Assembly: GCF_011045215.1 (NCBI RefSeq)
Contig: NZ_CP049201.1
DNA length: 64,000 nucleotides
Reading direction: 5' to 3' (one strand)
From: Escherichia coli
Lineage (GTDB): Bacteria > Pseudomonadota > Gammaproteobacteria > Enterobacterales > Enterobacteriaceae
Below are positions 42,001 to 44,074 of the stretch, piece after piece (the stretch's first letter is position 1; each line of letters starts with the position of its first letter). The position numbers were made by a program.

Positions 42001-44074
42001 AGATTTCGTGATCCTGCTATATTTGGCTGCTGGTGGTTTTCTTTGTAGTATTGCAGCAAATTTTCCCATTGTAAGTTTGTAAACGAGAAAGTTTCAGTCT
42101 TGTTATTGTTATCCCGTATGGTTAATTGATTTTCTACTGGGTCAAAAGAAATCATGAAGTTATTCAGGTGTTGATATTGATGAGTGGCATCTAATTTCAC
42201 TTCAAATGAATTTGAACTTTTGCAGGCATGTTTTAAAAACTTATCACAGGGAAGGTGTTGATCTTTATCTACGTGTTGTGGGTCATTGTGCAAAACAGAG
42301 AAAATACTCTCTTTCAAATTTTTCTTGTCAATATAGATTGGTAGTTGCGCTTTTTGTTCCATTATTTTAATAAACTGCTGCAATTGCTCGGTTTTAACAT
42401 TGCAGTGATGACTTATATCTTTATCTTTATCTTTATATTTAACAGTTAATACGCTTTCATTATCATCTTGTCGATTAAATATTATTTTTAGATCGCCAAC
42501 GTCAAACTCATGTAAACCATTTCTTTTGGTTCTGCCGATAATTTGTTCTGTTGTTGATGAATATCGATTTAAGGTTAATTCAAGATTGTCGGGATTAGAG
42601 ATAAGGTGAATAAAAAGATTCAGTACACGCTTAATCAAACCGTCATTCAAATGATTTATATCATAATTAATTTGTTTTTGTATGGTTTCAATTTCCGTGT
42701 TAATATCAAATGGTAGGTTGTTTTTTTCATGGCAAGCTTTTAGTCCCGGATACATGCCGAGTGTTGGGAAAATATCTTTGTATATGTTAAATAGGGAGCC
42801 CATATTTTTATCCTTGAATTGTGAAATATTCTTCTAAATTTAAAATAATCAGGGGGTGGGGAAAGATAAGCTTTGCACAGAAACTTATCTTTTAACATTA
42901 CAACACCCGGTAATCATTTTATTTCTCTAAGCATGATTATGGGTTTAAGTATAATGCAATATATATTGTATTTTAGACGCGCAATAGGAAGGTGCTATCA
43001 AAAATCGCTCATTTTGTGGATGGGAAATATTTCACGGCAGGCGAGATATTTACTACAACTTCCTTCATGCAGGATTATGCGCAGCCAATTATCCGGTTGG
43101 TATATTTAAAGATCCTATTGCCTGGTTGACGCTTCTGCATCGTAATGCACCACGCACTGCCAGTCGCTGCCCTGCTGGCAATATATCGCTTCGGTTTGCC
43201 CAGGGATCACCCATTGTATTTCCTCGCCGGGGGGACAGGTCAGCCAAATGCATAACCCGCAGCCGCCGCGTAAATCACGGGGAATATCGCTGACGCGAAA
43301 AGTCATGCCCGCTGCCTGCAACGCCTTGCGGGTTTGTATGACGCCGACCGTGGAGTGAAATAAAAATAAAAACTCTTTCATCGGCGTGTCCTCACTCGTT
43401 GACCAATTACCGCCGCGCCAATTGCGCCAGCAAATTGCGCATCAGGATGGGTATTTACCGGCATTCGCAGGTGAGATTCCAGCATCCGGGCAAACGTCTG
43501 GCAATGACTAACCCCACCAGTAAACAGAATCGGCGCTTCACAGGAGAGACGAGCAATGAAATTGGCACTCCTCCGCGCCATCGCGTTAATCACTCCGGCG
43601 AGAATCGCTTCTGGCGCGACGCCCGCTGAGCGCAGGCTGATCACTTCTGATTCGGCAAACACTGTGCACATACTCGTGATGGCGTGCGGTGTGACATTTT
43701 CAGTAATGCTGTCGAGCTGCTCGACGCTGGTGCCAAGCGTGCGCGAGATCACCTCCAGGAAACGCCCGGTGCCCGCCGCGCATTTGTCATTCATCAGGAA
43801 ATCGCACAGGTTACCGTCATCATCAAGCTGAATCACTTTGCTGTCCTGACCACCGATGTCGATTACCGCGCGCGTTGCTGGCGCAAGAAACCGTGCGCCC
43901 AGCCCGTGACAGGAGATTTCCGTCACTTGTTTATCGGCAAAATCCACCAGTTGCCGTCCATAGCCGGTGAGCGTCAGAAACGGCGATGTCTCTAACCCTT
44001 CGCGCAGAGTTTCCCAGGCTTCAGTAATTGCTGTTGCCGGACGAAAGGGTGTTGGAACGAGGAAACGGCGCGTA

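Follow-up and report, generated by a model that had tools for sequence, protein, structure and literature searches.

ytiA, a DUF3343 gene overlapping the end of yjiL in Escherichia coli, and a possible selenium/sulfur relay to a double-cubane reductase

Proteins of the DUF3343 family have one conserved cysteine, and a role as selenium/sulfur (Se/S) chaperones was proposed for them by Lin et al. 2015 (PMC5322559). The STRING table of that work already included, for Slackia, an activase and an HGD subunit among the DUF3343 neighbours. Among the double-cubane cluster proteins (DCCPs), YjiM of Escherichia coli was placed in "class II" by Jeoung et al. (PMC7317905), with no physiological substrate known. 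YjiM protein has been detected in proteomes, and oxygen depletion of strain O157:H7 raises yjiM transcription along with that of frd, nrf and nrdDG (PMC2241611). Haft 2022 (bioRxiv 10.1101/2022.07.06.499078) reported that 955 of the 970 proteins of the NCBIfam model NF040772 come from SelD-containing assemblies and raised Se-related roles for them. In Haft & Self 2008 (PMC2276186), finally, a set of SelD, YqeB, YqeC and MocA-type proteins marks the selenium-dependent molybdenum hydroxylase (SDMH) trait. Here we analysed a stretch of 64,000 nucleotides of E. coli DNA (assembly GCF_011045215.1, contig NZ_CP049201.1), called the window below, in which a small open reading frame (ORF), ytiA, follows yjiM and yjiL and encodes a DUF3343 protein.

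We regard it as practically certain that ytiA is a genuine gene that codes for a protein and forms the third cistron of yjiM-yjiL-ytiA. YtiA matched Pfam PF11823 (DUF3343, Se_S_carrier) with 49.2 bits and E=3.6e-13 at a gathering cutoff of 25 bits, its residues 4-59 aligning to profile positions 2-57 of 69. Its whole-protein score places it in the family, as does its character of a small stand-alone protein, in the family range of about 70-100 aa, with one highly conserved cysteine. In the closest genomes, a RefSeq coding sequence (CDS) at the ytiA coordinates, with a product identical to that of the window, is named "putative Se/S carrier protein" (WP_000657677.1), and the K-12 MG1655 counterpart is annotated as ytiA, b4715, "uncharacterized protein YtiA". 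Of 5426 complete E. coli genomes, 5385 contain ytiA DNA, and all 60 genomes sampled evenly down the match ranking have an annotated CDS at its position. Since the ORF, its family and its name stand in public annotation, the finding is, as a gene call, already known and adds nothing to the K-12 reference annotation or to Pfam. A previous sequence-only reading of this DNA had described an 88-residue, Cys-containing ORF on the strand of yjiL and yjiM, had suspected a genuine small partner of these two genes and not a chance ORF, and had suggested a Pfam search for DUF3343. The ORF listing returned this very frame, the search gave the match just mentioned, and the idea of a partner is supported by this match, the annotation and the conserved overlap with yjiL.

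The frame could in principle be a chance or decaying one that persists only through its overlap with the end of yjiL. Dozens of spurious ORFs of 40-120 residues lie in the 8 kb surrounding ytiA, so that a length of 88 codons alone is no proof of a gene. Furthermore, the C-terminal third of the product varies, also from one E. coli lineage to another, and no peptide or ribosome-profiling evidence for YtiA was found in the literature searched. However, Pfam homology, conservation down to 19% identity and purifying selection, with substitution ratios well below 1, show that ytiA is non-random; its frame was unbroken in every species tested and a confident fold was predicted for its product. Nor is the frame maintained by yjiL, because the overlap comprises only 4 nt. 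We consider the chance reading as effectively refuted already and give it next to no credence. Other resources had little to say about the protein: NCBIfam has no model for YtiA, a sequence search of the PDB gave nothing meaningful (best E=0.044, unrelated proteins), and literature searches on ytiA/b4715 returned only the Bacillus subtilis ytiA (rpmE2) or irrelevant matches.

On the minus strand, the yjiL-ytiA junction reads GTGAGGACACGCCGATGAAAGAG. The overlap between the ORF start and the yjiL stop, already described as a 4-nt overlap of ATGA type in the sequence-only reading, was found again in the sequence (Table 1). Read together, this overlap and the GAGGA motif inside yjiL suggest that translation of ytiA is probably coupled to termination of yjiL, which would give a roughly co-ordinated synthesis of YjiL and YtiA. 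When species-representative genomes were scanned with an alignment of YjiM, 80 loci were obtained, 19 gammaproteobacterial and 61 from Firmicutes. A DUF3343 ORF was located directly 3' of yjiM-yjiL in 18 of the 19 gammaproteobacterial loci, with carriers that include Escherichia, Citrobacter, Klebsiella, Kosakonia, Trabulsiella, Cedecea, Superficieibacter, Hafnia, Morganella and Aeromonas; the contig of the remaining locus stops 119 nt past yjiL. In all 18 testable other gammaproteobacterial species, ytiA was intact, its start overlapped the yjiL stop (as ATGA, GTGA, TAATG, TGATG or, in Hafnia, an 11-nt overlap) and a purine-rich stretch occupied the position of the Shine-Dalgarno sequence. 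Of three metagenomic contigs that we consulted, with products only 35-40% identical to YtiA, two likewise had a start overlap after yjiM-yjiL. Hence the ORF and its coupling anatomy are kept across these relatives, and in no genome examined was the ORF broken while yjiL and yjiM were intact, the case that the sequence-only reading had named as speaking against it.

The ratio of nonsynonymous to synonymous substitution rates (dN/dS; Nei-Gojobori, unsaturated pairs) was 0.34 for ytiA, 0.11 for yjiL and 0.06 for yjiM; within Aeromonas, within Citrobacter and within Escherichia, ytiA values ranged from 0.08 to 0.29. Constraint was stronger on YtiA residues 1-50 than on the C-terminal part, as reflected by a pN/pS (the corresponding ratio of proportions of differences) of 0.65 in the C-terminal half versus 0.41. 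A first word-indexed search with YtiA had returned enteric relatives only, and the one with YjiM only relatives of at least 85% identity among the matches listed. YtiA diverges much faster than its neighbour, with 54-79% identity within the Enterobacteriaceae alignment versus 86-89% for most YjiM relatives listed. YjiM itself changes unusually little between phyla, its E. coli form being 56-68% identical to those of Clostridia, Enterococcus or Lachnospiraceae, always at a length of about 383 residues.

The two larger genes of the operon define the system that ytiA belongs to. YjiM reached NF040772, "double-cubane-cluster-containing anaerobic reductase", with 530.7 bits at a cutoff of 350, and its residues 26-383 showed homology to the DCCP of Carboxydothermus hydrogenoformans, whose structure is solved (PDB 6ENO, E=5e-74). 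YjiL matched TIGR00241 (362 bits) and PF01869 (1.5e-76). A gene for an activase of YjiL type adjoined yjiM at each of the 19 gammaproteobacterial loci; in Firmicutes, 42 of the 61 loci had one no more than 6 kb away. Judged from these matches, YjiM is a double-cubane [8Fe-9S] reductase and no classical dehydratase subunit, and YjiL is its ATP-dependent reductase. In the sequence-only reading, yjiL and yjiM had been called a dehydratase-like pair; their status as partners of ytiA stood, whereas the dehydratase label fell, since YjiM is a reductase of the double-cubane type.

As to YtiA itself, its AlphaFold2 (AF2) model reached a predicted local distance difference test score (pLDDT) of 91.7. 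A small ferredoxin-like α/β domain of the order β1-α1-β2-loop-β3-α2-β4-β5 is predicted with confidence, PII-like and not TusA-like, with Cys41 on the β2-β3 loop. Cys41 closes a conserved loop, D-I-P-R-x-L-R-G-G-C-G-L-C. Of the five cysteines in YtiA (C41, C44, C49, C68 and C76), it is the only one invariant in the family: together with Pro34 and Phe8 it was conserved in an alignment of 40 DUF3343 sequences, down to 19% identity. Two larger families were tried and rejected. For TusA/SirA/YedF, no PF01206 match was obtained at E<=0.1, the hhalign comparison of the DUF3343 profile with TusA gave a probability of 2.1%, and YtiA did not show a TusA-type fold, no TusA being among the structural matches listed. 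For PII, there was no PF00543 match, and the best Foldseek hit had E=6.8e-3 and a template modelling (TM) score of 0.51, with none at E<=1e-3.

The predicted fold brings two other functions to mind. YtiA could be a PII-like regulator or adaptor that would bind YjiL or YjiM by its β2-β3 (T-loop-like) loop and gate the costly ATP hydrolysis, perhaps with redox sensing at Cys41. With structural matches to PII below significance, no Pfam P-II match, family invariants (Cys, Pro and Phe) that make no nucleotide-binding pattern, and genomic partners of DUF3343 that are S/Se enzymes and transporters and not regulators, we find this quite unlikely. Alternatively, YtiA could be a CxxC thiol-disulfide or a metal/Fe-S electron relay feeding YjiL in the manner of a ferredoxin or flavodoxin. 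The sequence C41-G-L-C44 plus C49 of the enteric proteins and the predicted ferredoxin-like fold would be in line with this. Position 44, however, changes within the family as a whole, Hafnia, Morganella and Aeromonas having Ser, Ala or Gly there, and C49 is not invariant either. One conserved cysteine by itself cannot ligate a cluster; we consider such an electron relay very unlikely.

The genomic company of DUF3343 points in another direction. Eight of the ten distant representatives looked up adjoin S/Se-handling genes. In three cases the DUF3343 gene was directly 3' of a gene for a YedE/YeeE-like Sulf_transp protein, once together with a NifS-like gene and a LysR regulator; in two it accompanied a TusA or TusA-DsrE (YedF-type) protein, in one of these followed by an Aminotran_5 (NifS-like) gene; and in one it lay beside YqeC. 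Two representatives were part of HGD-D (383 aa)-activase-DUF3343 units, that is, DCCP plus activase, with unrelated flanks (loci L005 and L007/L008), and two neighbourhoods were uninformative. These surroundings agree with the Se/S chaperone role proposed by Lin et al. 2015. One DUF3343 gene, 40% identical to YtiA in its product (L004:912-1297), follows a pseudouridine synthase gene and a 48-aa ORF on a 1.4-kb contig without DCCP.

For the 61 Firmicutes loci, with YjiM orthologues at 56-68% identity, we counted the neighbours within 6 kb. Genes for Se/S or molybdenum-cofactor proteins were found in 15 of them, lying contiguously and arranged in five or more gene orders: YedF at 9 loci, DUF3343 at 8, NifS/SclA-like proteins at 8, MocA-like proteins at 6, SelD and YqeB at 5 each, and YqeC, XdhC and the molybdenum subunit of xanthine-dehydrogenase-family enzymes at 4 each. 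In Clostridium intestinale (L035:2390-12870), genes for the molybdenum, [2Fe-2S] and FAD subunits are followed on one strand, with gaps of few bases, by yjiM, yjiL, selD (TIGR00476), yedF (TIGR03527), the DUF3343 gene, yqeC (TIGR03172), mocA (TIGR03310), yqeB (TIGR03309) and xdhC. By curated NCBIfam matches, DCCP and DUF3343 orthologues were co-located with selD, yqeB and yqeC at this and three further Clostridium loci (L049, L051 and L082). Genes for a YjiM orthologue and its activase were also seen within SDMH clusters at L057 and L052. No adjacent selD, yqeB or yqeC, in turn, was present in the window or at any gammaproteobacterial locus of the set; since the parts are scattered in E. coli, a selenium link would be invisible from the window alone.

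Some further neighbours deserve mention. A gene for a PatB-family C-S lyase (TIGR04350, 489 bits) adjoins YjiM-orthologue genes at four Firmicutes loci, divergent at L041, L042 and L044 and upstream on the same strand at L071, which may be another hint of C-S/C-Se chemistry around the YjiM-type reductase. A longer DCCP paralogue (about 425-450 aa) stands in an operon with its own DUF3343 and activase genes at L062:1938-4373 and L087:463-2841, in the orders DCCP-DUF3343-activase and activase-DCCP-DUF3343; the association with DUF3343 is therefore not restricted to YjiM orthologues. The ABC-ATPase neighbours of Firmicutes DCCP genes were heterogeneous and uninformative.

We propose that YtiA acts as a Se/S relay through Cys41, serving the YjiM/YjiL reductase. 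Cys41 would carry the chalcogen as a persulfide or perselenide (Cys-S-S-/Cys-S-Se-), and YtiA would link cellular Se/S donors with the ATP-driven, low-potential YjiM and YjiL. It would either present bound Se or S, both being possible, for reduction to selenide or sulfide, or remove the product; in enterics Cys44 could serve as a resolving thiol. The invariant Cys41 on its loop, the S/Se gene neighbours, the selenium clusters of Firmicutes and the co-occurrence with SelD (Haft 2022) support this role, for which we see about equal chances of being right or wrong. The explanation as a whole, of a real, translationally linked gene whose product relays chalcogen for YjiM/YjiL, is the one that we prefer, by a modest leaning. 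An unlikely alternative would be that YtiA helps to mature or repair the [8Fe-9S] cluster of YjiM, supplying the extra bridging sulfide (or a selenide) from a cysteine desulfurase and taking no part in turnover. A small Cys-bearing protein encoded in a DCCP operon would suit such a task, NifS-like genes adjoin DUF3343 and DCCP genes at L050, L062, L078, L079 and L084, and a Se-bridged cluster was listed by Haft 2022 as a formal possibility. Where DCCP is missing, however, DUF3343 genes also occur beside those for YedE-like transporters, TusA and YqeC, and most Firmicutes YjiM loci are without DUF3343.

Several observations weigh against a chalcogen relay by YtiA. No DUF3343 or Se gene was found within 6 kb at 46 of the 61 Firmicutes loci; the reductase therefore has no universal need of an adjacent carrier. 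Loci that do have Se genes cluster in the phylogeny, mostly in Clostridium and Lachnospiraceae, so that the count of 15 of 61 overstates the number of independent events. In the alignments, Cys44, Cys49, Cys68 and Cys76 showed no conservation outside enterics. A scan of the 80 DCCP loci for selenocysteine in place of Cys41 (in-frame TGA in DUF3343 genes) gave none beyond known ORFs. The family name "Se/S carrier" is itself a comparative-genomics guess, and in the literature searched no experiment on YtiA or any other DUF3343 protein was found.

The gene content of the Clostridium loci, such as L035, suggests a wider reading. YjiM-YjiL-YtiA may be the module that the "third selenium trait" has been lacking, making or delivering reduced Se for SelD and for the YqeB/YqeC-dependent labile-Se molybdenum cofactor of xanthine-dehydrogenase-family enzymes; we put this forward tentatively and with more doubt than belief. 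Selenium-dependent hydroxylases are important for gut purine and urate degradation. Term searches of four selenium-cofactor papers brought up no mention of YtiA/DUF3343, DCCP or its activase in that pathway, and the placement of YjiM-YjiL-DUF3343 inside selenium-cofactor clusters goes beyond the literature searched. ytiA points to two questions, the substrate of double-cubane reductases and the selenium route to the molybdenum cofactor of selenium-dependent hydroxylases. Since ytiA is a fixed third gene in E. coli and has relatives in selD/yedF/yqeB/yqeC clusters, a Se/S-relay role is directly testable in a tractable organism.

The features of the locus are collected in Table 1. Promoter and terminator scans of the locus gave counts equal to shuffled expectation, with no terminator found 3' of ytiA, and an Rfam scan gave no match above noise. 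The longest yjiM ORF begins at GTG 45327 (390 aa), whereas RefSeq and all orthologues start at ATG 45306 (383 aa); the yjiN ORF (470 aa) likewise exceeds its annotated length of 426 aa.

Table 1. Coordinates of ytiA, its sequence elements and its partner genes in the window
Feature	Position	Strand	Remarks
ytiA CDS	43115..43381	minus	ATG start, TAG stop, 88 aa; ORF listing, Pfam PF11823, RefSeq CDS
ytiA/yjiL ATGA overlap	43378..43381	minus	ytiA ATG 43381-43379, yjiL TGA 43380-43378; 4 nt common to both CDS
ytiA Shine-Dalgarno GAGGA	43389..43393	minus	inside yjiL 3' end, 7 nt 5' of ATG; read from sequence
ytiA codons 32-44, loop D-I-P-R-D-L-R-G-G-C41-G-L-C44	43250..43288	minus	Cys41 codon 43259-43261; alignments and AF2
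ytiA variable 3' part, codons ~62-88	43115..43198	minus	DNA alignment, megablast; adjoins espX6 island
yjiL, ATP-dependent activase/reductase (BcrAD_BadFG; TIGR00241)	43378..44145	minus	Pfam and NCBIfam
yjiM, double-cubane [8Fe-9S] protein (NF040772)	44155..45306	minus	first gene of yjiM-yjiL-ytiA; NCBIfam, PDB 6ENO, RefSeq start

The 3' part of ytiA exists in two allelic forms. The window allele (88 aa) is 100% identical in DNA to that of O157:H7; 644 of the 5426 complete E. coli genomes match it along 80% or more of its length. The K-12-type allele has an 85-aa product, the last ~20 codons diverging to a different but homologous C-terminus; in the sampled rows of K-12-type strains the megablast match spans only CDS nt 1-211. 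A low-GC island (31-40% GC) occupies the space between yjiK and ytiA, and its edge is where the two alleles diverge; the point at which espX6-carrying strains depart from K-12-type E. coli lies within ytiA (43115-43198). The island encodes, at 40596-42803 on the minus strand, a 735-aa pentapeptide-repeat protein with the O157:H7 RefSeq name of type III secretion system (T3SS) effector EspX6 and with an imperfect 8-aa tandem motif (..QANDSTDK..) at its C-terminus. K-12-type strains lack the EspX6-type gene, and in the most similar genome a frameshift makes it a pseudogene.

Compared with the described systems, YtiA resembles PII (GlnB/GlnK) in a predicted ferredoxin-like βαββαβ core with a functional loop between β2 and β3, but the structural similarity is weak (TM ~0.5, E above 1e-3), there is no Pfam P-II match and other residues are conserved. 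With TusA/YedF (SirA-like) it shares the small size, one key cysteine, genes near desulfurases and YedE/YeeE-type transporters and, for YtiA as a proposal only, a persulfide/perselenide relay chemistry. YtiA has, however, no sequence or profile kinship with them, and its cysteine sits on the β2-β3 loop and not, as in TusA, at the N-terminus of helix 1; it is no member of the TusA family but may, by analogy, work like TusA. Of DUF3343 as described by Lin et al. 2015, YtiA is a direct member, with the size of the family (80-100 aa), its single invariant cysteine and, as for some members, genes for activase and HGD-D-type proteins nearby. The enteric YtiA clade differs in being fixed in a three-gene operon with a double-cubane reductase and in an extra, CxxC-like second cysteine, and E. 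coli ytiA is without an adjacent Se gene. DCCP and its reductase DCCP-R of C. hydrogenoformans (PDB 6ENO and 7YYL; Jeoung, Martins & Dobbek, PMC7317905 and PMC9351452) are homologues of YjiM and YjiL, respectively, and YtiA is for this reason encoded with a DCCP-type system. As described, that system consists of two components, with no small protein as a third, and YjiM is of the shorter "class II" type; it is therefore the gammaproteobacterial form that features a small third gene as a fixed part. As for the SDMH maturation set (Haft & Self 2008), the E. coli genes lie at separate loci, whereas at the four Clostridium loci DUF3343 and the YjiM/YjiL orthologues are interleaved with its members.
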